Below, one piece after another: positions 1,361 through 61,904 of a stretch of DNA of 64,000 bases; position 1 is the first letter of the stretch; every line of letters starts with the position of its first letter. Made by a program: the position numbers and the translations under genes. The stretch is from IMG/VR virus record IMGVR_UViG_3300037129_000090, one strand, 5' to 3'. A model generated the notes under the pieces. That model made no database searches. It was not told the DNA's origin and saw only the letters and a program-made list of their open reading frames with translations. The DNA comes from a virus (Duplodnaviria; Heunggongvirae; Uroviricota; Caudoviricetes).

Positions 1361-1503
1361 AGTTGTTGAATAAAACGATATCTATAGCAATGCTTATCCT
1401 TATATACTATGAAGTCTATGTTATTATACATTATTTATATATCTGTAATTTACAAAAATATTATTTAATCATAGTTTTTGTAGACGTAGAAGGAGTTTGT
1501 ATT

Positions 1504-5146: not shown

Positions 5147-6379
5147 ATGGCTACAGTTACACGAACAGAACAAATACAATTTACATCGAATCCAGAGGTA
5201 GATTCTATCGGTAGCCTGTGCCATGCTTCTAAGAACCTCTTTAACTTCTCCAACTACCTTGTCAGACAGCGATTCTTCGAGAATGATAAGCTCTACCAAG
5301 AGAAAGGAGAGAAAGGCAAACATCTCTGGTACAAAGAGTTGTACCCTCTGGTGAAGTCCTCAGAACCTTACAAGGCACTTCTAGCGCAGACAGCACAGCA
5401 GATACTTAAATTGCTTGATAAGAGTTGGAAAGGCTATTTCATGTCTTTCAAGGCTTGGTTAGCACATCCAGAGGACTTCCTTGGTAAGCCCAAGCCGCCT
5501 AAATACAAAGCTAAAAACGGTGAACACATACTTGTTTTCACAAATCAGCAGTGTAAAATTGTAGATGGAATACTAAAGTTCCCTAAAATAGTAGGACTTG
5601 AACTCAAAACAAGATTAACAGATGTTGATTTGCGTGAAGTTCGGATTATCCCAAATGGCGTTAATTACATTTGCGAGATAGTGTACAACAAAGAAGTGTT
5701 TCCGGCAGAAATTAATTCAACCAGAGTTATCGGAATTGATACAGGCGAACGCAACATTGTAACCATTGCAAACAACTTTGGTGCTAAACCGATTGTTGTT
5801 AAGGGCAGTACTGCAAATAGCATGAATCAGTTCTACAACAAAGAGAAAGCAAGAGTCCAGAGCATCTACGATAAGCTAGGAATCAAATACGGCGGTAAAT
5901 TAAGGCATCTGGATTTCAAGCGAAATAATAAGATTAAAGACTACTTCCATAAGCTTAGCCGGATGATTGTTGATTACGCAAAAGACAATAATGTCAAAAC
6001 AATCGTTATCGGTAAAAATGTTAATTGGAAACAGGAGATTAACATCGGTAAGCGAAACAACCAGAAGTTCGTACAGCTTCCTCATGCTAAGCTTATCGAA
6101 ATGATACAGTACAAAGCTGAGGAACTTGGAATAGAAGTAGTCCTGCAAGAAGAGGCGCATACATCCAAATGTAGCTTCCTAGATAACGAATCAATTGAAC
6201 ATCATGCTAAATACGTTGGTCGAAGGATTAAAAGAGGCATCTTTAAAACAGCTAAAGGAATCCTCATTAATGCCGATGTTAATGGTGCTCTTAACATAAT
6301 CAGAAAGGCAACTCTGAAAGCCTTTACAGCAGACGGAGTAGAGGGTGTAGGGTTACACCCAGATAGATGGTACATTTGA
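5147..6379 (+). CDS. tnpB: TnpB (RuvC-like RNA-guided nuclease family), zinc finger degenerate
   Basis: RuvC-I GIDTGERN, RuvC-II ...QEEAHTSK, Ruv[15 protein letters not shown]. The usual CxxC...CxxC between RuvC-II and III is reduced to a single Cys. SD GAGGTGAT. Confidence 0.85.
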   Translation: MATVTRTEQIQFTSNPEVDSIGSLCHASKNLFNFSNYLVRQRFFENDKLYQEKGEKGKHLWYKELYPLVKSSEPYKALLAQTAQQILKLLDKSWKGYFMSFKAWLAHPEDFLGKPKPPKYKAKNGEHILVFTNQQCKIVDGILKFPKIVGLELKTRLTDVDLREVRIIPNGVNYICEIVYNKEVFPAEINSTRVIGIDTGERNIVTIANNFGAKPIVVKGSTANSMNQFYNKEKARVQSIYDKLGIKYGGKLRHLDFKRNNKIKDYFHKLSRMIVDYAKDNNVKTIVIGKNVNWKQEINIGKRNNQKFVQLPHAKLIEMIQYKAEELGIEVVLQEEAHTSKCSFLDNESIEHHAKYVGRRIKRGIFKTAKGILINADVNGALNIIRKATLKAFTADGVEGVGLHPDRWYI

Positions 6380-13599: not shown

Positions 13600-13616
13600 A
13601 TGCTTAGGTGGTTGAC

Positions 13617-15443
13617 ATGGTTAACCTTGGTAAAAATGTGGGTTCGCAAGAGCCCACTTATGCAGAAGACGAAGAAGAATATGAAGAGTATGAGCCTGAA
13701 CCAGAATCAGCACCAGTGATCGTAGATATTCCGATGGACATAAGCGAGGCGGAGTATACTGTCCATGATGGTGGAATTATAACTGGCATGCCTGCACTCG
13801 TCGTTAAAATGGTTTCGTGTAATTTGCACTGTAGCTACTGTTTCGGCGCAAAAAGTGGTAGAGATCAGGATGGACATTATCACAGAAGACCCACACTATG
13901 TCCACCAAACAAAAAAGTTATTTCAATACATAGAGTAAAGGCTGGTGATGTGGTTTTAACTTATGATGAAAACCTTAAGTTGGTTGAAACCACTGTAGTA
14001 AATGTCTTAACGAGAGACGTTGATGAATGGCTAGAAATTATTATAAATAATAAAAAGTATTTCGTTACACCAGAACATCCATTTTTCACTACGAGAGGAC
14101 TTACACCCGCACAAAATTTAGAAATTGGAGATATGATAATTCATTCATCGTCACGAGATAAGATGTCATATCGTATGATTGGTGATAAAAACCCTATACG
14201 TAATATTGATATTCTAAAGAAGAAAATGGAACATACCGATTATGATATAGTTGGTGAAAAAATCCATAATACGCTGCAAGCTCAAATTGAGCGCGGTGAA
14301 TATATACATCCATTTAGTAAATTAACAAAGGAGCAAAAGACTGAAGCTATAAGAAAACTTTCCTTGGGTAAATTAGGTGATAAAAACCCTCGTTGGTCTG
14401 GTGGTCGTTCTACTTGGGATAATAACACACGTCCGAATTATTTTATTTTAACAGAAATGATAGAGAAAGGTGTATATACAGAATGTAAAATATGTGGCTC
14501 TATCGGCTCTAATGGTGGTAGATTATTGGAAGTGCATCATTTAGATGGTGATCCGAATAATGACGATCCTTCTAATCTAACCATTATCTGCCATAAATGT
14601 CATAGCAAAATACACAAAAGAGGAAATAATTTTTGGATGAATCCACGCAAAGATGGTGTGTGTGTTTCCACTGAGTTAGATTTCAGAATGTTAGAACTCA
14701 ATGGTATGGAGGTTACTAAGATAACTAGAGTAACTAATTCAAAAAAGAAACTGAAAGTGTATAATTTTCAGTGTTCGCCATACAACACATATCTTATAGA
14801 TAATATGTGGGTTCATAACTGTGACGTAATTAAACGGAAGATTGAGCGCTCATATAACATGAATAGTATGATCCAATTACTGGTTGGTTATGCAGACTTA
14901 GACCTTATCATCACTGGTGGTGAGCCATTTGTCCAACCCGAAGCTCTTGGTTTCTTAATTAATGTGGGACTCGATGCAAGAAAAGAATTTGGATATTCAA
15001 CAAATGTAGTTGTTGAGACCAATGGTACAATAGGTCCAGAAATATTACGAAGAACACAGTATGAAGCTAGTCGTGTATCAGAAGAAAATCTAAAGGCTGT
15101 CGTTTGGTCTATAAATCCTAAGCTGCATAGTAGTCATGAAGAATGGTCAAAAACGCGATTCACAGATTTTATGGAATTTCCGAATGTTCAAGTACGGCTT
15201 ACGGTGAACCCATTCGACCCTGATGATTTGTCTGATATGAGGCGAATAGCGAGTTTGATACCATCAAACGTACATATTGTGGCACATCCAATGGTTCAAG
15301 ACCTTGAATCATATGATATAGAGGCTTATCAGCGTTCTTTACATGAGTTGTATAAAATCATAATCGATGAACGTCTTGCTAGAGTACGTATTATTCCGCA
15401 GTTACATAAAGTGATTTGGGGAATGAGAAAGGAGTCAATTTAA
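13617..15443 (+). CDS. queE: 7-carboxy-7-deazaguanine synthase QueE (radical SAM) interrupted by an in-frame HNH intein
   Basis: CNLHCSYC (CxxxCxxC) motif. C-terminal exteins ITGGEPFVQPE...VRIIPQLHKVIWG match the QueE ends ISGGNPALL...VRVLPQLHTLLWG. The listed ORF starts at an alternative GTG at 13608. Confidence 0.8.
   Translation: MVNLGKNVGSQEPTYAEDEEEYEEYEPEPESAPVIVDIPMDISEAEYTVHDGGIITGMPALVVKMVSCNLHCSYCFGAKSGRDQDGHYHRRPTLCPPNKKVISIHRVKAGDVVLTYDENLKLVETTVVNVLTRDVDEWLEIIINNKKYFVTPEHPFFTTRGLTPAQNLEIGDMIIHSSSRDKMSYRMIGDKNPIRNIDILKKKMEHTDYDIVGEKIHNTLQAQIERGEYIHPFSKLTKEQKTEAIRKLSLGKLGDKNPRWSGGRSTWDNNTRPNYFILTEMIEKGVYTECKICGSIGSNGGRLLEVHHLDGDPNNDDPSNLTIICHKCHSKIHKRGNNFWMNPRKDGVCVSTELDFRMLELNGMEVTKITRVTNSKKKLKVYNFQCSPYNTYLIDNMWVHNCDVIKRKIERSYNMNSMIQLLVGYADLDLIITGGEPFVQPEALGFLINVGLDARKEFGYSTNVVVETNGTIGPEILRRTQYEASRVSEENLKAVVWSINPKLHSSHEEWSKTRFTDFMEFPNVQVRLTVNPFDPDDLSDMRRIASLIPSNVHIVAHPMVQDLESYDIEAYQRSLHELYKIIIDERLARVRIIPQLHKVIWGMRKESI
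13899..14816 (+). mobile_element. intein (Hint domain + HNH homing endonuclease) inside queE
   Basis: Starts at the Cys of TLC|PPNKK; block B TPEHPFF; HNH CKICGS...HHLDGDPNND...CHKCH; ends WVHN followed by extein Cys. Confidence 0.7.
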
Positions 15444-23570: not shown

Positions 23571-25871
23571 ATGAAAATTAGTGTTACGATAGGCGATGCA
23601 CGTAAAGTGCTCAAAGATTTACCTGATAACTCGATTCAGTGTTGTGTGACATCACCACCATATTATAACCTTCGTTCCTATTGCGATGAAGATTCACCAG
23701 AGAAAGAGGATGAAATAGGCACTGAGCAGACTCCTCAAGAATACATTGACAATATGGTTGATGTTTGTCGCGAAATAAAAAGAGTGTTGCGCGACGATGG
23801 AATACTATGGATTAACATAGGTGATGCGTTTTATAATTATCGTCCTGGTAAGGGACAAGCTCTTAGTAAACAAACATTTGCAAAAACAGATCAGGATTTA
23901 CCGCAATTATGTCCAAGACGTGGAAATAAACTTGATGGTCTTAAAGAGAAGGATTTGATTGGAGTGCCGTGGGCTTTAGCCTTTGCACTAAGAGATGATG
24001 GTTGGTTTTTGAGAAGAGACATAATCTGGAACAAGCTAAATAATATGCCAGAGTCAGTTTCTGATAGGGCAACTACTGCACATGAATATATCTTTATGTT
24101 TACTAAAAATAGCAAATATTTTTATGACAGTGAAGCAGTAAAAGAACCTGCTGACTACGATGGGCGTAAGGATACTGTAATGAAAGGTAGCGAAAAATAT
24201 AAAGAAGCCGCAGTACCTGGAAAGAAAGAACAAAGTATGGCTGTTGATGGCACTGAGAGATGGCAACGCAATGAAGATGGTGAGTATCTCAGAAATCTTC
24301 GTTCGGTGTGGAGTGTTCCAACCGAGTCTTATACGGACGCCCACTTTGCTTGTGTAGATGCTGAAACTGAATGTTTGACTGCTGGTGGATGGCGTAGATA
24401 TCATGAATTACGCATTGGTGAGATGATTTATTCTTATAACATGGAAAATGATTGTCTTGAGTTACAGCAACTAGAAGATGTCATGGTTTATTATCATACT
24501 GGTAATATGATTTCAGTAAGTGGTAGGTCTAGCTCGATGTTATTAACTGAAAATCATAGATGTGTAGTAAGACGTAGAAATACAAGGAAAGGTGGTTTTC
24601 GAGATACTATTATAGTTGCAGCTAGTGAACTTAATGGTAGTATGGTATTTCCAGTCGCTGCTGAGCTACACGGTGAACATATAGTACCAGATGAAATTCC
24701 AAATTACTATTATTTATTGGGAATTGTGGCATCTGAAGGTTTTTATAGCGATGCAGGTGAGATTGGGATAGCTCAATCACTCAGGGCTAATCCTAAAATT
24801 GTTAGTAAAATAGACGATGTATTGATTTCACTTAATGCTGAATATAGTAGATGGGTGTCCCATAGTGATAAAAATGGTGATGTTGTAACTTGGCGATTAC
24901 ATGATAAGTATAGAAGTAAAATAAGATTTGATTTACCTGATAAGTTTAGATTACCTGAGAAGCTTTTACATCTTCCAAAGGCTTATATAGACGCGTTTCT
25001 TGAAGGTTTCGTCGATGGTGATGGTAGTGTGAGAGAAGATGGAAGAATTTCAATTTATCAAAAAGTTAAACAGCCACTTGATATTATTCAGGCTATGTAT
25101 GTGCTTAGTGGTAAATCATGTATACTAACACAGAGAGGTAACCAGAATTGGAGTGCCTATGTTACAGATAAAAGATTTAGATATTTTAAAAATGCAACAT
25201 CTGAAATTATCACAGTAGTTCCTCATCAGGGAAATGTCTGGTGTCCTAAAACAAAGAATGGTACTTGGGTAGCTCGTAGACAAGGCAGACCTTTTATTAC
25301 TGGTAATTCATTTTCAACCAAGCTTATCGACCCATGTCTTAAAGCAGGCACTTCAGAGAGAGGTTGTTGTCCTGAATGTGGAGCTCCATGGGAAAGAGTC
25401 GTAGAGAAGCGTAGGATGCAACGCTGTGAGCTCCCACAAGACGATATTAGGTATCGTCCCAATACTTATCATGGCGCTTACGAAGACATCAATGGCAGAG
25501 GCGACGCTGGCTACACAGTATCAAAGACACTCGGATGGCAACCTACATGTGACTGCTATAACGTTACTAGAGTGCAAAAGCCTAAGAAAGATGATTCTGA
25601 CGAGATTAAAATAGAAAGAGAGCGACAATTAAATAACTTCAAAGAATTATCTTCAATTCCATGTACCGCTTTAGACCCATTTGCTGGTACTGGCACTGTA
25701 GGTCGCTGGTGTGTTGAAAACGATAGAAGCGTTGTGTTAATAGAACTTAATCCTAAATATAAACCCTTGATCGAACGTAGGCTCTCCTGCAACAAGGAAG
25801 TTATGTTGATTAAATCAGATAATGGAAATAATATGAATTTTGAAACCTCTACACTAGACGATTGGTTGTAA
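23571..25871 (+). CDS. beta-class DNA methyltransferase (SPPY motif IV N-terminal, motif I DPFAGTGT C-terminal; N6-A or N4-C) interrupted by a LAGLIDADG intein
   Basis: CVTSPPYYNL and ALDPFAGTGTVG extein motifs; SD GGAG. Confidence 0.85.
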   Translation: MKISVTIGDARKVLKDLPDNSIQCCVTSPPYYNLRSYCDEDSPEKEDEIGTEQTPQEYIDNMVDVCREIKRVLRDDGILWINIGDAFYNYRPGKGQALSKQTFAKTDQDLPQLCPRRGNKLDGLKEKDLIGVPWALAFALRDDGWFLRRDIIWNKLNNMPESVSDRATTAHEYIFMFTKNSKYFYDSEAVKEPADYDGRKDTVMKGSEKYKEAAVPGKKEQSMAVDGTERWQRNEDGEYLRNLRSVWSVPTESYTDAHFACVDAETECLTAGGWRRYHELRIGEMIYSYNMENDCLELQQLEDVMVYYHTGNMISVSGRSSSMLLTENHRCVVRRRNTRKGGFRDTIIVAASELNGSMVFPVAAELHGEHIVPDEIPNYYYLLGIVASEGFYSDAGEIGIAQSLRANPKIVSKIDDVLISLNAEYSRWVSHSDKNGDVVTWRLHDKYRSKIRFDLPDKFRLPEKLLHLPKAYIDAFLEGFVDGDGSVREDGRISIYQKVKQPLDIIQAMYVLSGKSCILTQRGNQNWSAYVTDKRFRYFKNATSEIITVVPHQGNVWCPKTKNGTWVARRQGRPFITGNSFSTKLIDPCLKAGTSERGCCPECGAPWERVVEKRRMQRCELPQDDIRYRPNTYHGAYEDINGRGDAGYTVSKTLGWQPTCDCYNVTRVQKPKKDDSDEIKIERERQLNNFKELSSIPCTALDPFAGTGTVGRWCVENDRSVVLIELNPKYKPLIERRLSCNKEVMLIKSDNGNNMNFETSTLDDWL
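24351..25307 (+). mobile_element. intein with LAGLIDADG homing endonuclease domain inside the methyltransferase gene
   Basis: Begins AHFA|CVDAETECLTAGG; block B LTENHRCVV; LAGLIDADG-like YYYLLGIVASEGF and LEGFVDGDGSV; ends ...FITGN|SFS. Confidence 0.75.
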
Positions 25872-28778: not shown

Positions 28779-29081
28779 ATGGACATATCTTATCAATTTG
28801 TAGCATTCGTTGTGTTATTGCTTCTGGGCGTAGTCATACTTGATAGTGCGGTTTCATCGCAAGGCGATAGCTTGAACAGTTTAAATAATTATACTCTTAA
28901 CTTTACCCAGAATCCCCAAGCTGGAAGTACGTTAGTTGTAGACCATCAGGTGTTTGAGTTCACAAATAACACATCATTAAATGATGGTAACATTCCTGTG
29001 TTTATCGACGCCGATGTGAATACTACGGCAGCCAATCTTAAGCAAGCGATTGGTAATCATACAAGTCTGGTGGTCTCGTAA
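28779..29081 (+). CDS. small secreted/membrane glycoprotein-like protein, translationally coupled to the giant surface protein
   Basis: Signal/TM segment VAFVVLLLLGVVIL; several N-x-S/T sequons; stop overlaps the next ATG (TAATG). Confidence 0.5.
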   Translation: MDISYQFVAFVVLLLLGVVILDSAVSSQGDSLNSLNNYTLNFTQNPQAGSTLVVDHQVFEFTNNTSLNDGNIPVFIDADVNTTAANLKQAIGNHTSLVVS

Positions 29082-32000
29082 TGAAAACAATGAACATTAT
29101 ACTTTCAGCTTTATTTATTTTATTGCTAGCAGGAATGGCTGGTGTTGCGTCGGCTCAAGCTTATTGGATCGATAATAATAATAATATGTGGGTTAATACA
29201 AGTATACCAGCTGGTATAAACACTACAACACTTTATGTTACAAAAACAGCTGGCAATATATCTAATGGAAGTAATGTGTTTGATTTGTATGATGAATTTA
29301 ATGGCAATACATTGAATAATTCATGGATGAAAATTAGTAATCCAACAACGGCAAGTGTGGGTTCAGGTATCTTGACAGTTAAGCCATCTGGTGGTTCTGC
29401 TTTCATTGGTGGTGTAAGAACAACATCGAATTTGTCTAATAATGATTTCATATTAGATACACGTATGTCTTTTGATAATTATAATGGTGCGATAATGTAT
29501 CGTGCCAGTAATAGTAATTTTTATCCAGGTGATTTTGTGTGGGTTCAAGATACTGGTGCGTGGGGATTTTCTCATAAGCCAACTGCCACAACTTATATTC
29601 TTGATACTAGTGGTGGAATATGCGCAAGTGACACTTATTTTAATCTTACACTTAAAGTATATGGAAATAATATTGAGTTGTACAAAGAGGGTGTATTACA
29701 GAAGACAACTAGTGATTCTAGCATGCCAGCGAGTGGGGGTATAGGTTTTTCATCATGGAGTGGTGGTGGTGCTGATAATAATAAAATAGATTTCGTCAGA
29801 GTTAGAAAATACAATGCAACTGAACCAACTGTAAGTGTTGTGACAAATGGTGTCTCAGGTTATATAGTTAATATATCAAGTGGTACGTCACTTACAAATT
29901 ATCAAGTTAACATAAGTGGTGCGGCTTTAGGTGTTACATCTGCTGGTGATTCATATTCAGTAAGTACTACCCCACCGGGTTTAATTTCGTTTACTTCAAA
30001 TGTAACGTCTGGTACATATCCTTTAACTGTTAAATTCAATGACACATCTTCTAATTCACCAACTATATGGGCATGGAATTTTGGTGATAATACAGCTAAT
30101 GTTACAACACAAAATTGTACACATACTTTTGTGGGTGTTGGAACGTTTACTGTTACACTTGGTGCAACCAGTAATGGGATTACTACATATGCACAGCAAA
30201 CAGTAACTGTAAACAAAACAACTCCAACTATAACATGGTCAAATCCAGCCAACATAACTTATGGAACTGCTTTATCTGGTACACAACTCAATGCAAATGT
30301 AGCTTCTCCTGCTGGTTCAATTACATATAGTCCTGATACAGGTGCGGTACTTGCAGCTGGTACTCAAACGTTAGGCTGTACATTTACACCTACTGATACT
30401 GCTAATTACAGTACAGCCACAGGTAGTGTATCTTTAGTTATTAATAAAGTTACTCCAGTTATAACATGGACTGTGCCTGACGCTATTACTTACGGCACAG
30501 CACTTTCTGGTACTCAATTATCAGCTACGTGTCCTCAAACAGGGTCTTTCACATACAATCCTGTGAGTGGAACAGTGATTGCAGCTGGAACTCAAATTTT
30601 ACAAACTACATTCACACCATCTGGTGCAGATGCTACTAACTATACAACAAACATAGCTTCTGTAAATTTAACTGTGAACAAAGCGACGCCAGTAATTACA
30701 TGGGCTACACCAGCAGCGATTACCTATGGTACAGCTTTGTCTGCAACGCAATTATCAGCCACGTGTCCACAATCAGGTAATTTTGTGTATTCACCTGTTA
30801 GTGGTACAGTACTGGGTGTGGGTAACAAAACACTATCAACTACATTTACTTCGTCAGGTGCAGCTGCTGTAAATTATACGAATAATACAGCATCGGTATA
30901 TTTAACTGTAAATAAAGCAATACCAAGTATTACATGGGCTACGCCGACAGCTGTAAATTATGGAACAGCATTAAGTGATACGCAATTGAATGCAACTTCT
31001 GCAACTGCTGGTGCAATGACATATATTCCTGCTTCTGGAACAATATTGGCGGCTGGCAATCAGACACTTAATGTCACATTAACTCCGACAGACATAGCTA
31101 ATTATACCACTGCTACGGCTTCTGTGACACTCGTAATCAATAAAATAGTGTCTGTTATATCATGGGATACGCCTGAAACTATTGACTATCCGACTGTATT
31201 AAGCGCAACACAATTAAATGCAACTTGTAATGCACCTGGTACATTAGTTTATACTCCGCCAGTTGGTACTTTATTAGGTGTAGGAACGCATAATCTTAGT
31301 GTTACATTTACACCGTCAGACCTGACCAATTATACAACAGCTACAGACCAAGTCGCACAGATCGTTATAAATCAAAATAAGACTAATTTAACATGGATTC
31401 CTCCCGCAGACATAGTATATGGTACGCCATTGAGTGCAACGCAACTAAATGCTAGTGGTGGTGATATACCTGGTGTTTTTACATATGCTCCAGCAACTGG
31501 AACTGTATTGGGTGTAGGTACACAGATTCTTAATGCTACGTTTACACCAACAGATTATCTAAATTATTCAGGTAATTCAATAAATGTAACATTGAATGTG
31601 ACACAAGCAACACCAACAATTACTTGGAGTACACCAGCTAACATAACTTACGGAACTGGTTTATCTACAACCCAATTGTCTGCTACTTCTCCACAATCAG
31701 GAAGTTTTGCCTATTCACCTACAACAGGCACTATATTTGGTGTAGGTACACATACTCTAAATACAACATTTACACCGTCTGGTGCATCTGCGGTAAACTA
31801 TACCACAAATACAGCTTCTGTAAACTTAATAGTTAATCAAGCAACACCAAGTATTACATGGAGTAATCCAGCGGCTATAACTTATGGAACAACATTGAAC
31901 TCTACTCAACTTTCAGCAACTTGTATTGCAGCTGGTACATTTACATATACACCAGCGAGCGGGTACATAATGCACGCGGGCGCTGGACAAACTCTACATG

Positions 32001-35000
32001 TGGACTTTGCGCCAACAGATGCTGTAAATTATACAGTGGCTTCAAAAGATGTCGCAATAACGGTGAATAAAGGCACAACCAGTTTCACAGCTAATGTAAG
32101 TACAGTTACTATACCTGCTGGTGTACAATTTACAGATACTTCAACAGGTGCACCGACTCATTGGTCTTGGGACTTTGGTGATGGAACTACCGATACTGTG
32201 CAAAATCCAATACACTATTTTACCACAGCTGGTCATCATAGTGTAACTTTGAATTTCTCGGACTTCGCAAATTACACCTACGAATCTGGACCAACCGATA
32301 TTTTTGTGCTTAATGCAATACCAGTTGCAAATATCACAATGAATGGAAAGCAGGGCGCAATCAATACAACTGCACCATTAATAGCTTACTTTAATGATAC
32401 TTCAAACGGTGTAAATATTACACAATGGTCTTGGGATTTCAATGATACTATGGGTGGTCTTCAATATGCAACAACTCAGAATGCCACTCACGTATTCCCA
32501 TTGGCTGGTAATTATACAGTAACGTTAGCTGTAACAAACGATGGTGGTATTAATACTACAGAAATGCCAATAACAGTTGTTGGTGGCGGAGGTACTGGTG
32601 GACCACAAAAACCAATCGCTGGTTTCTCTGCGAATGCATCAATTGGTTATATTCCATTAACTGTACAATTCACGAATGTTAGTGCATTTACACCTACTTC
32701 ATGGCGTTGGGATTTCGGTGACAATACAAATAGTACTCTAGAAAACCCAATTCACACCTATCCAGATCGCGGTGTATATAATGTTACATTCACTGCGACA
32801 AATGACTATGGATCAGATACAGCACAGTGTATTAACTTTATTCATACATACTACGCTCCGCCTGTTACTAACTTTATCACAAATGTAACTAATGGCGATA
32901 TACCTCTAAATGTTCAATTTACCGATACATCAACAGGTATAATTTCCGCGTACAATTGGTCATTTGGTGATGGTACGTATAGTACAGAACAAAATCCAAT
33001 ACATGTATATACGCAAATTGGTTTGTATAATGTATCGTTGAATGCAAGTAACATAGACAATAACTATACAGTTACAAGAGTCAACTACATAGTTGTGGGC
33101 GTACCAATACCTGCACCAGTGGCTGATTTCAATGCAAATATTACAAGTGGAGCTGCACCTACAACAGTTCAGTTTGTTGATAATAGTACTGGTCCGGTTA
33201 GTAATTACACGTGGGATTTTGGTGATGGTATTGGTTCGTATACTCAAAATCCAGTACATGTATATGCAAATAATGGTAATTACACAGTTTCGTTAAATGT
33301 TAGTAATACAAAAGGGTTTAATGTATCAACAAAATATAACTATATAGTTGTAGCAGAAAGTATACCAGTGCCAGTTTCAGATTTCCATGCAGTAACTACA
33401 TCTGGTGGTGTACCTTTCAGTACACAATTTATAGACGATAGTACTGGTATTGTGCAGAGTCGTGTATGGGATTTCGGAGATGGTAACACAGCGACATCAC
33501 AGAATCCAACACACACCTATACACAAGTTGGTGTTTATACTGTCTCGTTGAATGTGAGTAATAGTAATGGATTCAATGTGTCAGTCAAAGCAAATTATAT
33601 AAATGCGACTTCACAATCACCAGCACCAACTGCGGCATTCCATGCAGTAACCGCCACAGGAATACCACCACTCGATGTACAGTTCATAGATGATAGTACA
33701 GGTGTTGTTGATAATCGTGACTGGGATTTCGGCGATGGTAGTACAGCACATTCACAGAATCCAATACACACGTATACGCAAGCAGGTACTTATACAGTTA
33801 CATTGAATGCCAGTAACTTCAATGGATTTACTACTTCGACAAGAACTAATTACATTGGTGTTAGTGCTGTAGAACCAGCACCAGTTTCTGCATTCCATGC
33901 AAATATGACTGGTGGATTAGTACCTCTAACTGTTCAGTTTGTAGATGACAGCGATGGTAATGTCTCTGGTAGAGTGTGGAATTTCGGTGATGGTAATGGT
34001 TCGAGTGCATTGAATCCAATACATACATATTCAACAGTCGGTGTTTATACAGTTTCTTTGAATGTAAGTAATGCTGGTGGTTCTAATGAATCAATGAAAG
34101 TAGGTTATATTAATGCAACAGACATTGCAATCCCGCACCCACCACTTGCCTCATTCAGAGAGAATGTAACTGGTGGAATTGCGCCGGTTACAGTACAATT
34201 CAAAGATACAAGTAGTAATACACCAACATACTGGTTATGGAACTTCGGAGATGGTGTAGGAACAAATGAGCAGAACCCCACCCACACATATACAGTACCT
34301 GGTACTTACAATGTAACATTGGAAATTGGTAATGTTGATGGAAATGATACAATCTCCGAGCTTGTAAATGTGTTAAAACCAATTAGTATACCAGTTGCTA
34401 ATTTCACTTCGGATGTTAGTGTAGGTGGGCTACCACTGACCGTACATTTCATAGACCTTTCGAGTAATGACACAGCTAATTGGTTATGGGACTTTGGTGA
34501 TAATAATACGGCTATAATCGAGAGTCCTACCCATGTATACCAGCAAGCTGGAAATTACACAGTTAATTTAACTGTGAATAACTCTGCCGGTAGCAACACA
34601 ATGACAAAGATTGATTACATAGTTGTAGGCAACCAAGTAAGGGCAAATTTTACAACAAATAACACGAATGGTACAGTTCCTCTGTTTGTTCAATTCACCG
34701 ATGTGTCGACAGGTTCACCGCAGAACTTTAGTTGGAATTTCGGAGATAATGCAACAAGCACAGAGCAGAATCCGATGCATGAATACAATGTATCTGGAAA
34801 CTACAGTGTTTCAGAGACTGTGGGGTTAGGTAATGCGAATGATACAATGACAAAAACGGATTATATTACAGCGCAATTACCATCAGCTGCACCACCGATC
34901 GCTCAGTTCTATGTGAGTGAAACCAATATTTCAATACCAGATGGTGTAGATACCAACACATCCGTGAAATTTACCGATACTTCGATAGGTGTTGGTATTA

Positions 35001-35617
35001 ATGCATGGGTGTGGGTGTTTGGTGATGGAAATACCAGTAATGAGCAGAACCCGACTCATATCTATCAGAAACCTGGCACATATAACGTTGTGTTGACAGC
35101 CACTTCACCGTATGGCACATCTGTTTCTGCACCGACAACGTTGAACATCATACAAGGCGCACCAAATGTAACTATGATGGTAAATGTGTCTGAAGGGTAT
35201 GTTCCCTTAACAGTAGCATTCATAGATTCAACTACTAATGTGAGTGGGCAAACATATTGGGATTTTGGTGACGGTAGTACTTCGAATGAATCTAATCCTA
35301 TTCATACATATATTGACGATGGTATTTATGGGGCTACGTTAATTGTAAATAGGAATGGACAAAATTATAGTATTACTCAGATGATCAATGCACATTACGT
35401 TACTGTGGCGACAGTAAAAATTAATGCGACTCAGCAGGACCAGATGCTAGATGTAAATTCAACAGCCGGTAAATCATTGAGATTGGAACAAACAAGCAAA
35501 CAATCAGCAATGTATGGTGCTGTTCATGCAGTTGAAAAAGGAACAAGCGGCGGATACACCTTATTAGTTGTGGCAATTCTAATATTGGGTGCTCTATCAT
35601 TCTGGTTCTTGTTTTAA
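29081..35617 (+). CDS. giant secreted surface protein: signal peptide, ConA-like/LamG-like N-domain, about 12 Ig-like MBG-like repeats (loose family call), about 18 PKD domains, C-terminal TM anchor
   Basis: Signal peptide ...GVASA|QA; repeated ITYGTALS..TQL.AT...GTF.Y.P..GT.LAAG.QTL...FTPTD..NY units; repeated W.FGDG..S.EQNP.HTY PKD motifs; C-terminal hydrophobic LLVVAILILGALSFWFLF; very high density of N-x-S/T sequons. Confidence 0.85.
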   Translation: MKTMNIILSALFILLLAGMAGVASAQAYWIDNNNNMWVNTSIPAGINTTTLYVTKTAGNISNGSNVFDLYDEFNGNTLNNSWMKISNPTTASVGSGILTVKPSGGSAFIGGVRTTSNLSNNDFILDTRMSFDNYNGAIMYRASNSNFYPGDFVWVQDTGAWGFSHKPTATTYILDTSGGICASDTYFNLTLKVYGNNIELYKEGVLQKTTSDSSMPASGGIGFSSWSGGGADNNKIDFVRVRKYNATEPTVSVVTNGVSGYIVNISSGTSLTNYQVNISGAALGVTSAGDSYSVSTTPPGLISFTSNVTSGTYPLTVKFNDTSSNSPTIWAWNFGDNTANVTTQNCTHTFVGVGTFTVTLGATSNGITTYAQQTVTVNKTTPTITWSNPANITYGTALSGTQLNANVASPAGSITYSPDTGAVLAAGTQTLGCTFTPTDTANYSTATGSVSLVINKVTPVITWTVPDAITYGTALSGTQLSATCPQTGSFTYNPVSGTVIAAGTQILQTTFTPSGADATNYTTNIASVNLTVNKATPVITWATPAAITYGTALSATQLSATCPQSGNFVYSPVSGTVLGVGNKTLSTTFTSSGAAAVNYTNNTASVYLTVNKAIPSITWATPTAVNYGTALSDTQLNATSATAGAMTYIPASGTILAAGNQTLNVTLTPTDIANYTTATASVTLVINKIVSVISWDTPETIDYPTVLSATQLNATCNAPGTLVYTPPVGTLLGVGTHNLSVTFTPSDLTNYTTATDQVAQIVINQNKTNLTWIPPADIVYGTPLSATQLNASGGDIPGVFTYAPATGTVLGVGTQILNATFTPTDYLNYSGNSINVTLNVTQATPTITWSTPANITYGTGLSTTQLSATSPQSGSFAYSPTTGTIFGVGTHTLNTTFTPSGASAVNYTTNTASVNLIVNQATPSITWSNPAAITYGTTLNSTQLSATCIAAGTFTYTPASGYIMHAGAGQTLHVDFAPTDAVNYTVASKDVAITVNKGTTSFTANVSTVTIPAGVQFTDTSTGAPTHWSWDFGDGTTDTVQNPIHYFTTAGHHSVTLNFSDFANYTYESGPTDIFVLNAIPVANITMNGKQGAINTTAPLIAYFNDTSNGVNITQWSWDFNDTMGGLQYATTQNATHVFPLAGNYTVTLAVTNDGGINTTEMPITVVGGGGTGGPQKPIAGFSANASIGYIPLTVQFTNVSAFTPTSWRWDFGDNTNSTLENPIHTYPDRGVYNVTFTATNDYGSDTAQCINFIHTYYAPPVTNFITNVTNGDIPLNVQFTDTSTGIISAYNWSFGDGTYSTEQNPIHVYTQIGLYNVSLNASNIDNNYTVTRVNYIVVGVPIPAPVADFNANITSGAAPTTVQFVDNSTGPVSNYTWDFGDGIGSYTQNPVHVYANNGNYTVSLNVSNTKGFNVSTKYNYIVVAESIPVPVSDFHAVTTSGGVPFSTQFIDDSTGIVQSRVWDFGDGNTATSQNPTHTYTQVGVYTVSLNVSNSNGFNVSVKANYINATSQSPAPTAAFHAVTATGIPPLDVQFIDDSTGVVDNRDWDFGDGSTAHSQNPIHTYTQAGTYTVTLNASNFNGFTTSTRTNYIGVSAVEPAPVSAFHANMTGGLVPLTVQFVDDSDGNVSGRVWNFGDGNGSSALNPIHTYSTVGVYTVSLNVSNAGGSNESMKVGYINATDIAIPHPPLASFRENVTGGIAPVTVQFKDTSSNTPTYWLWNFGDGVGTNEQNPTHTYTVPGTYNVTLEIGNVDGNDTISELVNVLKPISIPVANFTSDVSVGGLPLTVHFIDLSSNDTANWLWDFGDNNTAIIESPTHVYQQAGNYTVNLTVNNSAGSNTMTKIDYIVVGNQVRANFTTNNTNGTVPLFVQFTDVSTGSPQNFSWNFGDNATSTEQNPMHEYNVSGNYSVSETVGLGNANDTMTKTDYITAQLPSAAPPIAQFYVSETNISIPDGVDTNTSVKFTDTSIGVGINAWVWVFGDGNTSNEQNPTHIYQKPGTYNVVLTATSPYGTSVSAPTTLNIIQGAPNVTMMVNVSEGYVPLTVAFIDSTTNVSGQTYWDFGDGSTSNESNPIHTYIDDGIYGATLIVNRNGQNYSITQMINAHYVTVATVKINATQQDQMLDVNSTAGKSLRLEQTSKQSAMYGAVHAVEKGTSGGYTLLVVAILILGALSFWFLF

Positions 35618-35939: not shown

Positions 35940-37375
35940 AAGATTATAAGTGGGGTCAACTACCGCTAGGCTAAAGACCTAGCGGCTTGTAATTTCCTCA
36001 GATTTTACAATTTGATTCAAACGCTAAAAACAAACGCTTTGGTCTGTTGACTAGACCTCTACTAACTATCTTCTGTATAGGAGAATCGCTAGCTACTTTT
36101 CTCAATATATTTAATGCACCATTTACATCTGCATTAATTAATTGACCAGTAATACTTTTATACAAGCCTCTCTTAACACGTCTTGATTTACCATAAGGTT
36201 GTTTTTTAATTTCATCTAAAGCCAAAGCATCGGTTCTACTTGTATATGCTTCATCAACTAATTGATATTTGATACCATAGTAGTCACATTTACTTTGAAG
36301 CTTACCTTTGAATTTTCCAAATGGTATTGACACAAAGCTCTGATTATTGCGCTTGCCATGATTTATTCCTTGCTTTATTTCCTTAAGTTCACCGATTAGA
36401 ATATTACCTATCTTATTTTCTAAACAGTGTTTTATGATGTAGTTAACTGTTCGGTTCATGAACTCTGATATCTTGTTAGCGCGTTTAGTTAAGAGTTTAA
36501 TCTGCTTATTTGTTATTAATTTTATTCCTTGTTTATCTTTGATACTCTGTAATCTAGCATTCTCCTTGTTATACCACTGGTTAATAGATTTTATATACTT
36601 ACCATCTATGATAATGGCAGTCCCATCGGTATCTATCCAAGTTGCAAAATTAGAAACGCCTAAATCTATGCTAAGATATTTAGAGTAATCAAGTTCTTGT
36701 TGTTGTTTCTTTTCTTCATAACAATATTTTATTTTGAAATACCGCCCATCATACATCGGTATGACATGAACTTCTTGTATACTGAACTTTTTAGTTCTCA
36801 ATGGTTTTGGTAATTTAAAAGTTAACAGCTTTTTAGCATTCCTGTTTTGCTTTAGAAACTCAATTGAAATACCCAACCGTATATTATTACCTTTGAATGA
36901 AAAAGCATTCTTAGGAAATGCTATCAAGAAATTACTATCTTTGTTAAGATAATGTGGTATATTAGGTTTATCCAATTGTCCATTTCTATAGAGTTTTAAC
37001 AAACCAAAAAAGCTTCGCATCCCTCTTTCTACCATCTTCAGAGATTGCTGAGCACTAGCCGCCTGCATTAACTTATAATTCTCATCTTCCTTGCAAAGAT
37101 GATAATTTTGAGGATATTTCAAAAATTCATTATTATTGAAGAAATATTGTCGAGTGTTATACAATCCTAAATTATACAAGTTTTTAGAAGCGCGACTAAG
37201 TGACCTCAACATTATATATTGTTCCTTGTTTAATCTAAGATTATTTGTGATACTCAACATTATGTATACATAATGTGATATTTGTATATATACTTTTGTC
37301 TAAATCAAATTGTATTTAACTTCCGGTCGCAATTCATCCACGAAACTAAAGATTTCGTGGTTTTCTTATGAACCT
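35940..37375 (-). mobile_element. IS200/IS605-like non-autonomous element (tnpB only)
   Basis: Subterminal hairpins with identical loop TCTTTAG at both ends on the minus strand: CCACGAAA-TCTTTAG-TTTCGTGG (37346..37368) and CCGCTAGG-TCTTTAG-CCTAGCGG then TAGTTGAC (35950..35982). No tnpA. Confidence 0.65.
35998..37260 (-). CDS. tnpB: TnpB, paralog of the IS607-associated copy; zinc finger absent
   Basis: Ruv[10 protein letters not shown], RuvC-II ...LVDEAYTSR, Ruv[15 protein letters not shown]. No Cys pairs between II and III. N-terminal [18 protein letters not shown] matches ASKNLFNFSNYLVRQRFF of 5147..6379. Confidence 0.85.
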
Positions 37376-42046: not shown

Positions 42047-43159
42047 ATGTTAAAAGCCTACAAATATCGACTATATCCTACAAAGAACCAAGCTGATCAA
42101 TTTAATCAGCATATCGGTAGTTGTAGATTTGTCTATAATTGGGCTCTTGACCAGAAAATTAAAGCATATGAACAAACAGGTAAATCTGTATCAAGATATA
42201 CATTAAATAAACTTATACCATCTCTTAAAACCAATAGTCCGTGGTTAAGTGAAGTTAATTCACAATCATTACAGGGAATGACTAAACAGGTAGAATCTGC
42301 TTTCACTAAATTCTTTAGAGAAAAAGCAGGTTTCCCAAAGTTCAAATCTAAGAAGAATCCAATACAGTCATTTCCAGTACCACAGCATTATGAAGTAGAT
42401 TTTGATAGTGGTACAATCAAGTTACCTAAGATAGGTGACGTGAAAGTTGTTCTACATAAAAAATTTACAGGTACTCTTAAAACTGCTGTTATCTCAAGAA
42501 CAGTCACAGGCAAGTATTTCATTAGTGTCCTAGTTGATAATAATGAAGCTACTCCTAGTAAATCTATATTTTCTGAAATAACAACTGTAGGTGTAGATGT
42601 TGGTATCAAGGATTTTGCAGTTCTCTCGACAGGAGAAAAAGTAGAGAATCCAAAATATCTTAAAAATTCGATTCATAGACTAAAATGTCTTCAACGAAGA
42701 GTATCAAAGAAAGTTAAGGGTTCTAAAAATAGAAATAAAGCAAGACAACATCTTTCAAAGATTCATGAAATCATTACCAATCAAAGAAATAATTTCCAAC
42801 ACAAAATCTCTTCTAGATTGATATGCGAGAACCAAGCTATAGCGTTGGAAACTTTGAATGTTAAAGGTATGTTAAAGAATCACTGTCTTGCCCAATCGAT
42901 AAGTGATGTAGCATGGAGTAGTTTTGTAACTAAGTTAGAGTACAAAGCCGAATGGTTCGGAAAAACCATACTTAGAATAGGTAGATTTGAACCGTCGAGT
43001 AAGACGTGTAGTATTTGTGGCTATCGTAATAATACTCTAACATTGAAAGATAGGGAATGGGAATGCCCTGATTGCAAAACAAAACATGATAGAGATATTA
43101 ATGCGGCGATAAACATTAAGAAATTTGCATTAATAGATCAGAATTTAATCGGAATATAA
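42047..43159 (+). CDS. tnpB: TnpB (canonical, with zinc finger)
   Basis: RuvC-I VGVDVGIKD, RuvC-II LEYKAEWFG, Zn finger CSICGY...CPDCKTKHDRD, RuvC-III DINAAINI. Confidence 0.9.
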   Translation: MLKAYKYRLYPTKNQADQFNQHIGSCRFVYNWALDQKIKAYEQTGKSVSRYTLNKLIPSLKTNSPWLSEVNSQSLQGMTKQVESAFTKFFREKAGFPKFKSKKNPIQSFPVPQHYEVDFDSGTIKLPKIGDVKVVLHKKFTGTLKTAVISRTVTGKYFISVLVDNNEATPSKSIFSEITTVGVDVGIKDFAVLSTGEKVENPKYLKNSIHRLKCLQRRVSKKVKGSKNRNKARQHLSKIHEIITNQRNNFQHKISSRLICENQAIALETLNVKGMLKNHCLAQSISDVAWSSFVTKLEYKAEWFGKTILRIGRFEPSSKTCSICGYRNNTLTLKDREWECPDCKTKHDRDINAAINIKKFALIDQNLIGI

Positions 43160-44450: not shown

Positions 44451-44470
44451 CTCCTGTATTTGATTTTAAG

Positions 44471-44542
44471 GGCACATAAAGGGAATTGAACCCTGATATT
44501 AACTCCCACAACGTTACGCATTACCGCTGTGCTACATATGCC
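44471..44542 (-). tRNA. tRNA-His (anticodon GTG) with encoded G-1, no encoded CCA
   Basis: Manual fold of the reverse complement GGCATATGTAGCACAGCGGTAATGCGTAACGTTGTGGGAGTTAATATCAGGGTTCAATTCCCTTTATGTGCC: acceptor 7 bp (with G-U pairs), anticodon loop TTGTGGG, T-loop TTCAATT, extra 5' G pairing with discriminator C. Preceded by a TAACAA...TTATATATA promoter motif. Confidence 0.55.
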
Positions 44543-61820: not shown

Positions 61821-61827
61821 TCAAGTA

Positions 61828-61899
61828 CGCCAATGTCGGGAATTGAACCCAAATCCAAACGCCGACAACGTTTGATGATAGCCATTACACTACATTGGC
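61828..61899 (-). tRNA. tRNA-Asp (anticodon GTC), no encoded CCA
   Basis: Manual fold of the reverse complement GCCAATGTAGTGTAATGGCTATCATCAAACGTTGTCGGCGTTTGGATTTGGGTTCAATTCCCGACATTGGCG: 7-bp acceptor, D-loop with GG, perfect anticodon stem AAACG/CGTTT with loop TTGTCGG, T-arm TTGGG-TTCAATT-CCCGA, discriminator G. Confidence 0.75.
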
Positions 61900-61904
61900 A
61901 TTTA

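Follow-up and report, generated by a model that had tools for sequence, protein, structure and literature searches.

A LAGLIDADG intein with a Gly-Asn ending, predicted to splice, in the beta-class methyltransferase gene of a sparsely sampled virus-like element

The DNA considered here, referred to as the window, is a stretch of 64,000 nucleotides (nt) from a virus of the Caudoviricetes (IMG/VR record IMGVR_UViG_3300037129_000090), in which a single open reading frame (ORF) of 766 amino acids (aa) encodes a DNA methyltransferase interrupted by an insert of 319 aa. The locus raises the question of what this insert is, whether the Gly-Asn at its end, in the place of the usual His-Asn, is compatible with protein splicing, and by which route the methyltransferase would be restored. 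The insertion site, a fold made of a Hint domain and a LAGLIDADG homing endonuclease, membership of a known intein clade and the conservation of the catalytic positions were identified directly, and the sequence together with its structural model marks the insert as a bona fide intein that is expected to splice. In the best explanation as a whole, which is held with considerable confidence, an intein invaded the methyltransferase gene, leaves the protein by class 1 splicing with an Arg/Gly pair compensating for the missing histidine, and probably homes.

The insert and its host gene

The ORF begins with ATG and its frame is open over 766 codons (Table 1). It matches the Pfam family N6_N4_Mtase (PF01555) with an expectation value (E) of 1.7e-33 and 116.9 bits against a cut-off of 26.7, the best stretch being aa 22-204, and motif IV (SPPY) precedes motif I (DPFAGTGT), which is the order of the beta class and bears out the first-pass annotation of this DNA, made from its letters, that the gene encodes a beta-class SPPY methyltransferase. 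Sequence matches in the PDB are to a TTHA0409-like enzyme, RsrI, CcrM and PvuII, which are N6-adenine and N4-cytosine methyltransferases of the beta class; those within the part of the protein downstream of the insert (C-extein) cover aa 654-739. Cyanophage methyltransferases are about 50% identical to the ORF across aa 1-272. The annotations of homologues conflict, ranging from "dam" and "adenine-specific" to "cytosine methyltransferase", and SPPY is commoner in N4-cytosine methyltransferases.

The insert lies between AHFA and SFSTKL; its first residue is Cys, its last residues are FITGN, and Ser580 follows. Its guanine-cytosine content is slightly lower than that of the exteins (35% against 40-41%). 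In the methyltransferases of Methanoculleus virus L4768 (gp58), cyanophage MED4-213 and an uncultured phage of 485 kb the same place reads AHFA-T/V-FP without a break, the flanks align on both sides, and A257, H258, F259 and A260 are invariant in this alignment (A1). The large protein search added an intein-free allele of 447 aa with 85% identity (P0002), which reads AHFASFSTKLIDPC and, across the empty site, ...TDAHFASFSTKLIDPC...; its contig is syntenic, with a PD-(D/E)XK nuclease gene immediately upstream of the methyltransferase as in the window. Four homologues, three of them virus or phage proteins, are thus contiguous at exactly the point where the in-frame insertion had been placed, HFA↓S/T (the arrow marks a splice junction).

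When nt 24351-25307 are removed from the window gene, the remaining coding sequence of 1344 nt has the length of the P0002 gene and aligns with it without gaps at 81% nucleotide identity. Of the codon differences between the two genes, 161 are synonymous and 50 non-synonymous, which points to purifying selection on the host gene, that is, on the exteins. An insert retained in the protein would be hard to reconcile with such selection.

The same HFA↓ position is occupied in 48 of the 120 best homologues by an insert that opens with C-[VI]-D-x-x-T-[ED]-x-L-T, and among the 160 best intein domains of a representative search, which are full-length, best-scoring representatives and biased toward query-like sequences, about 100 sit at the methyltransferase HFA↓[ST]F site. 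Judged from these sequences, inteins frequently occupy the H-F-A↓[ST]-F motif of beta-class methyltransferases, a site of which no description was found in the literature searched; the methyltransferase inteins described there are those of mycobacteriophages, at another site. In two further homologues (P0041 and P0055) length and Pfam Intein_splicing matches suggest a second, upstream intein beside the one at the HFA site, and two others (P0072 and P0115) show similar signs of an upstream intein without an HFA-site intein. In the homologous methyltransferase family inteins may occupy two or more sites. A match in phage StAnnes was rejected as an intein, because the match spans two distinct genes, one for a methylase and one for an endonuclease.

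Inside the insert, the residues expected of a splicing domain are in place. The comparison set consists of 43 inteins at the same site with both junctions parsed (313-340 aa, 25-90% identity, median 38%), and positions are numbered as in PMC2807308, with G:5 for the antepenultimate residue, G:6 for the penultimate residue and G:7 for Asn. A nucleophile at position 1, the TxxH of block B, the C-terminal Asn and a nucleophilic +1 residue are all present, and the penultimate His, which is common in inteins and not obligatory, is replaced by Gly318 (Table 1). Among 20 aligned inteins C1, D3, T6, L9, T10, G13 and W14 of block A are invariant, and the aligned counterpart of block B in the AceL NrdHF intein is SPNHR.

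The AlphaFold2 model of the intein, built from an alignment of 20 same-site sequences, has a mean predicted local distance difference test (pLDDT) score of 94.9 and a predicted template modelling score (pTM) of 0.92. In it, beta-strands at either end flank an alpha/beta domain in the middle, the C-terminal strands spanning residues 287-300, 305-310 and 313-318. The first matches of this model in the PDB by Foldseek are whole intein-endonucleases (TliVMA, PhoVMA, PI-SceI, PI-PfuI and PI-PkoII; E 2.6e-17 to 4e-11) with query template modelling scores of 0.57-0.69, or 0.62-0.69 for all except one chain, and free LAGLIDADG enzymes rank after them, matching the middle domain. These classical enzymes share the two-domain architecture of Hint fold and double-motif LAGLIDADG domain, whereas their identity to the methyltransferase intein is 10-15% and their PDB entries comprise 361-537 residues against 320. 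Closure of the Hint fold by blocks F and G is seen in the AlphaFold2 model, in the Foldseek matches and in a profile match to 6ZGQ, the AceL NrdHF intein's structure. The earlier description of a 319-aa LAGLIDADG intein, running from the Cys after AHFA to GN↓S, therefore stands, with its C-terminal Hint blocks and with two LAGLIDADG motifs that carry acidic residues.

Table 1. Positions of the methyltransferase gene, its intein and the second intein in the window, with the conservation of catalytic positions
Feature	Coordinates (nt)	Strand	Remarks
Methyltransferase ORF, 766 aa	23571-25871	+	ATG start; single ORF in the ORF listing
N-extein, aa 1-260	23571-24350	+	holds SPPY; ends in conserved AHFA (aa 257-260, nt 24339-24350)
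Motif IV, SPPY, aa 28-31	23652-23663
Intein, 319 aa (protein aa 261-579)	24351-25307	+	Hint domain with inserted LAGLIDADG homing endonuclease
Block A, CVDAETECLTAGGW	24351-24392	+	Cys1, N-terminal splice nucleophile
Block B, LLTENHRCVV	24540-24569	+	Thr66 (B:7), His69 (B:10), Arg70 (B:11), Cys71 (B:12)
LAGLIDADG domain, about intein residues 106-275	24666-25175	+	profile and fold matches
LAGLIDADG motif 1, YYYLLGIVASEGF	24705-24743	+	LLGIVASEG, Glu129
LAGLIDADG motif 2, AFLEGFVDGDGSV	24993-25031	+	FVDGDG, Asp224
Block F, GNVWCPKTKNGTWVARR	25230-25280	+	Cys298 is F:4; block-F His missing
Block G, GRPFITGN↓S	25284-25310	+	Thr317 (G:5), Gly318 (G:6), Asn319 (G:7), Ser+1 (G:8)
C-extein, aa 580-766 and stop	25308-25871	+	starts SFSTKLIDPC, completing the HFA-S/T-F-x motif (alignment A1)
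Motif I, DPFAGTGT, aa 702-709	25674-25697
A:1, Cys1			43/43 same-site inteins; 160/160 clade members
B:7, Thr/Ser66			43/43 same-site inteins
B:10, His69			43/43 same-site inteins
B:11, Arg70			42/43 same-site inteins
F:3-F:5, Trp297-Cys298-Pro299			43/43 same-site inteins
G:5, Thr317			43/43 same-site inteins
G:6, Gly318			43/43 same-site inteins
G:7, Asn319			43/43 same-site inteins
+1 residue, Thr 38, Ser 5			43/43 same-site inteins
Second intein, 327 aa, HNH type	13839-14819	+	in QueE-like radical-SAM ORF 13608-15443; PT-HINT E=1.3e-9 and HNH motif

As an observation apart from the intein, the C-extein holds a zinc-ribbon-like insertion with four cysteines (nt 25365-25556, + strand) between the HFA-S-F motif and motif I, composed of CCPECG (nt 25365-25382, in CCPECGAPW) and TCDC (nt 25545-25556). 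It is kept in the archaeal-virus and uncultured-phage homologues and is missing from the cyanophage enzyme.

The Gly-Asn ending and the intein clade

All 43 same-site inteins end in [FI]-[IV]-T-G-N, and Gly-Asn also closes 158 of the 160 clade members recovered in other searches. The first-pass annotation had set the GN ending of this insert against the usual HN; the glycine is indeed there, but it is not an oddity of this copy, as it is the invariant signature of an extensive, phage-associated clade that includes splicing members (PMC5050341, PMC7891396). On the sequences compared, the Gly-Asn ending is a rule of the clade and not a lesion.

A tblastn search with the intein alone found phage relatives of 25-29% identity across 100% of its length, hosted by mycobacteriophage methyltransferases (Bobi gp73, Lilac gp101), a cluster C1 nucleotidyltransferase (Cali gp3), Gordonia phage portal proteins and a phage DNA polymerase I. 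Five phage-intein junctions show Cys1, x-N-H-R, [WV]-C and [TH]-G-N↓[ST], with G-K-H-R in block B of the DNA polymerase I intein. By the signature C1...[TS]-x-N-H-[RK]...[WY]-C...T-G-N↓[ST] and by similarity over its full length, the methyltransferase intein belongs with the Bethlehem gp51, DNMT, NT and portal inteins. The representative search with the full intein alignment (A2) in a library of 1.84 billion proteins returned 3945 clusters at E<=1e-30, and among species-representative genomes 258 loci of the clade were confirmed, in Bacteria (Chromatiaceae, Streptomyces, Patescibacteria and others) and in Archaea (DPANN, Hadarchaeales and Thaumarchaeota). Up to nine stretches matching the intein profile occur in one protein, with eight or nine in P0243 (2602 aa), P0361 (2583 aa) and P0351 (3308 aa), which may mean that many inteins of the clade reside in a single host protein.

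Three known systems are close enough for a comparison residue by residue. The intein of mycobacteriophage Bethlehem gp51 (RDF/metallophosphoesterase) resembles that of the methyltransferase in its length of about 317 aa, Cys1, T-x-N-H-R (TANHR), V-W-C, the ending LTGN↓S with Gly316 and the LAGLIDADG domain, and its 34 C-terminal residues match the family profile with a probability of 97% (E=1.2e-10); it differs in its site (NHD↓C in a phosphoesterase), its actinobacteriophage host and its block A (CSWTNARAVT against CVDAETECLT). The mycobacteriophage DNMT inteins of Bobi gp73 and Lilac gp101 are 27% identical over the full length and share C1, TPNHR, VWC and ITGN↓S, whereas those whose junctions were read are inserted at ...SIAWLYG↓C...N↓SGFPKS and not at HFA↓S/T; DNMT-1 and DNMT-2 inteins are listed in N6_N4_Mtase proteins by Kelley et al. 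(PMC5050341). No record among 50,697 phages covers at least 80% of the methyltransferase-plus-intein query.

The third system, the split intein of AceL NrdHF (6ZGQ, PMC7891396), has [ST]-P-N-H-R, Cys F:4, T-G-N↓S and the absence of His at F:13 and G:6 in common with the methyltransferase intein; its block B reads S65-P-N-H68-R69-M70 and its ending T144-G145-N146↓S (PMC7891396). It differs by Ala1, an experimentally established class 3 mechanism, Met at B:12, a ribonucleotide reductase as host, and its split form with a separate GIY-YIG gene in contrast to the internal LAGLIDADG domain found here. A profile of the splicing domain minus the endonuclease (A3) has one strong match in the PDB, which is 6ZGQ (E=3.2e-9, the next match being at 8e-4), and the alignment runs through block F, where Cys298 falls on residue 124 (C124A in the structure). 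With the full-length intein profile, hhalign aligned the N-terminal half only to AceL.

In standard inteins G:6 is usually His, and the commonest residue at F:4 is Asp (PMC4031507). The Bethlehem gp51 intein splices completely with its penultimate Gly, and its G316H mutant is slow (PMC5050341). In AceL NrdHF, G145H abolishes activity and would clash with Arg69, which hydrogen-bonds the carbonyl at the C-terminal scissile bond, and R69A is slower (PMC7891396). By analogy, the pair Arg70/Gly318 would fit the Arg69/Gly145 solution of AceL, and the family-wide coupling of Gly G:6 with Arg B:11 over hundreds of sequences matches the mutagenesis of two single inteins. That such a clade exists, ends in Gly-Asn and can splice was already known. 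What is new, as far as found in the literature, is the membership of this clade at the HFA↓[ST]F site and a sequence link between the Cys1 clade and the Ala1 class 3 intein of AceL NrdHF.

The splicing route and its rivals

A mobile intein would have invaded the gene between Ala260 and the Ser/Thr of H-F-A-[ST]-F. The whole precursor of 766 aa would be translated, with the 319-aa intein folding as a Hint domain that bears a double-motif LAGLIDADG domain, and its excision would most likely follow the standard class 1 route. In this route Cys1 would form the N-terminal thioester, aided by Thr66 and His69, Ser+1 would receive the N-extein, Asn319 would cyclise, and the joining of the exteins would yield an enzyme of 447 aa with an intact AHFASF. 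As the invariant Gly replaces the penultimate His, Arg70 (B:11) may fill the space and polarise the C-terminal scissile bond, as its counterpart does in AceL NrdHF. The free intein would then cut intein-free alleles at ...CACTTTGCA↓TCTTTT... and copy itself in.

Given that the intein splices, the class 1 route is the likely one. It is favoured because Cys1 is invariant, F:4 varies occasionally, Trp B:12 is lacking and Thr B:7 is kept. Cys1 is found in 160 of 160 clade members, whereas F:4, whose register rests on the profile alignment to one solved relative and on spacing, tolerates Ser (2) and Asp (1) among the 160. Trp at B:12 occurs in none of 101 inteins at the methyltransferase site, which have C, T, V, N, M or A there (Cys71 in the window copy), compared with 27 of 59 at other sites. 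A class 3 intein would have no nucleophile at position 1 and Trp at B:12, and neither feature is seen here.

Several observations weigh against this reading. The combination of Cys F:4, Thr G:5 and Ser/Thr at +1, which is expected of class 3, is found in 43 of 43 same-site inteins, and the class 1 assignment is not secure, as AceL NrdHF, the nearest solved relative, uses its F:4 Cys as the first nucleophile. The role proposed for Arg70 comes from this same relative, whose overall identity is low, and hhalign of the C-terminal intein half alone against AceL gave a weak match (P=0.017). Neither the Pfam nor the NCBIfam intein models picked up the splicing domain above threshold, and it took profile and structure methods to recognise it; phmmer found no match in the PDB for the last 49 intein residues. 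The endonuclease domain reaches 21.4 bits (E=3e-4) with Pfam LAGLIDADG_3 (PF14528), under the cut-off of 22.5 bits; a precomputed PF14528 match is present in many same-site homologues.

The rival that survives best is a class 3-type or dual route, in which Cys298 would attack the N-terminal scissile bond, the branched thioester at block F would pass to Ser+1, and Cys1 would be dispensable or auxiliary. The invariant F:4 and G:5 residues and the Ser/Thr at +1 supply the C and T of the WCT triplet of class 3 inteins (PMC2807308). The spacing of 21 from F:4 to Asn recurs in MP-Be DnaB, Msm DnaB-1 and Mle DnaB (PMC2807308, PMC5222942), and the closest solved structure, AceL NrdHF, which is experimentally class 3, has xPNHR, Cys F:4 and TGN↓S in common with the methyltransferase intein (PMC7891396). 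The full WCT triplet together with Cys1 is found in the 27 of 59 clade members at other sites that have Trp B:12, and three WCT inteins starting with Ser or Cys are on record (PMC2807308). The likeness to class 3 WCT inteins such as MP-Be DnaB and Msm DnaB-1 extends to phage association and a LAGLIDADG domain, but theirs are without an N-terminal nucleophile and have Trp B:12 and His G:6, whereas the methyltransferase intein has Cys1, Cys B:12, Gly G:6 and Thr B:7. It is position 1, and not F:4, that shows no substitution among the 160 clade members, and Trp B:12 is missing throughout the methyltransferase site. Thr B:7, kept here, is not conserved in class 3 inteins (PMC7891396), and the Bethlehem gp51 intein is treated as class 1 by Kelley et al. 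(PMC5050341). Taken together, a class 3-type or dual route appears improbable. Loci that combine Cys1 with the full WCT triplet (H-R-W, W-C, T-G-N) include the portal gene of Gordonia phage Woes (L011, nt 1501-2562) and the DNA polymerase I gene of phage DP SC_2_H4_2017 (L009, nt 2501-3523).

The two invariant cysteines predicted at the active site also allow for conditional splicing, in which a disulfide between Cys1 and Cys298 under oxidation would keep the methyltransferase inactive until the cell is reducing. Disulfide-bonded precursor conformers occur in the G316H mutant of the Bethlehem gp51 intein (PMC5050341), and a class 3 DnaB intein is under documented redox control through its catalytic Cys (PMC6195587). 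Such control is purely inferential for this intein, nothing in the window suggests redox regulation, and the wild-type Bethlehem intein is fully spliced at time zero (PMC5050341), which makes it very unlikely. That the insert is a dead intein (pseudogene), or a LAGLIDADG domain retained as a DNA-binding module, could explain the missing penultimate and block-F histidines and the profile models that stay silent or under their cut-offs, but is scarcely credible in view of the intact frame, splice residues that are invariant despite 25-90% identity, the excess of synonymous changes in the exteins, the complete and confidently predicted Hint fold, relatives with the same residues that splice efficiently (PMC5050341, PMC7891396), and the break that the insert makes in an invariant methyltransferase motif, which would not be tolerated if the insert stayed in the protein.

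Homing, the second intein and the surroundings

The endonuclease domain shows a two-motif, single-chain LAGLIDADG core (alpha-beta-beta-alpha-beta-beta-alpha) with one catalytic acidic residue at the end of each LAGLIDADG helix; Glu/Asp129 is present in 43 of 43 same-site inteins and Asp224 in 42, and Gln142 and Lys198 are found in all 43. Its profile matches PI-PkoII (E=5.1e-8), and its fold matches I-DmoI and I-Tsp061I (E 1e-8 to 1e-6). Mini-intein versions were not found among the 43 same-site copies. The acidic residues, the invariant Gln142 and Lys198 and the absence of mini-inteins argue for selection on the endonuclease, and once free, the intein probably has homing endonuclease activity.

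The candidate homing target is the empty site in the intein-free allele of contig L006, GACGCGCACTTTGCA↓TCTTTTTCAACAAAG. The 85%-identical, syntenic allele constitutes a presence/absence polymorphism of the kind made by homing, which gives neither its date nor its direction. The first-pass annotation had seen active intein traffic in this element. That idea gains indirect support from the intein-free allele in a sister contig, the conserved endonuclease residues and the purifying selection on the exteins, but no sign of recent movement within the element was found, and both inteins of the window come from widespread families.

The second of these inteins, about 10 kb upstream, carries an HNH domain and is thus of another endonuclease class, as had been proposed. 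It lies inside the CxxxCxxC iron-sulfur motif of a radical-SAM protein (CNLHCSY↓CFGAKSG...MWVHN↓CDV) and ends canonically in His-Asn↓Cys; this position makes the third Cys of the cluster motif the +1 nucleophile. Cys78 (CFGAKSG) was preferred to Cys98 (CPPNKK) as the first intein residue, as homologues conserve CxxxCxxC-FG[VI]...VHN↓CDT, and splicing from Cys78 would restore CxxxCxxCD in the radical-SAM protein. Among the matches listed, 120 of 120 radical-SAM homologues are of intein-bearing length, most of them with precomputed Hint-type Pfam matches. A further copy of the methyltransferase intein was not found among all ORFs of the window with the methyltransferase-intein profiles.

The window amounts to a module for replication and nucleotide metabolism, from a virus-like element that is poorly sampled. 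Its genes encode helicases, an SNF2 helicase and a DHH phosphoesterase, together with a weak prim-pol-like match below the Pfam cut-off; a thymidylate kinase is found in the gene calls of a matching Logan contig (L004), and a Cas4-like nuclease gene lies directly upstream of the methyltransferase. The D5-like primase-helicase (nt 1363-4248, + strand) has only three relatives among 5.8 billion proteins, of 100%, 67% and 61% identity, and megablast of the 10 kb around the methyltransferase gene found no match among 50,697 phage records, which indicates an element without a close sequenced relative. The element is from a very sparsely sampled lineage.

Other features of the window stand apart from the methyltransferase. 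Downstream of the replication module, a protein of 2178 aa (nt 29081-35617, + strand) consists nearly entirely of PKD/immunoglobulin-like repeats, with 14 PKD_4 stretches (E=1e-194). Three TnpB/OrfB_IS605 genes with a Cas12f-like TNB domain are located at nt 5147-6379 (+), 35998-37260 (-) and 42047-43159 (+), and no TnpA was noticed among the window proteins scanned; with the two inteins, this amounts to at least five selfish-element genes in 64 kb. Genes for tRNA-His(GTG) and tRNA-Asp(GTC) lie at nt 44470-44541 (-) and 61827-61900 (-), and gene orientation and GC skew switch from + to - at about 43-44 kb.

For annotation, the locus would be described as a single methyltransferase gene that holds an intein (nt 24351-25307) and has a mature product of 447 aa, and neither as a fusion of 766 aa nor as a disrupted gene. 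It is also conceivable, although unlikely, that the clade with Cys1, Cys F:4, Thr G:5 and Gly G:6 is a reservoir of the class 3 mechanism independent of the WCT/THN lineage, with AceL NrdHF as an Ala1 offshoot. If this were true, the methyltransferase intein may use either Cys first, as a natural intermediate between class 1 and class 3, and class 3 splicing would be polyphyletic and not a single event. The findings extend the current understanding of these inteins without changing it, and a clade that mixes Cys1, Cys F:4 and Thr G:5 offers a convenient natural system for the evolution of class 3 splicing.

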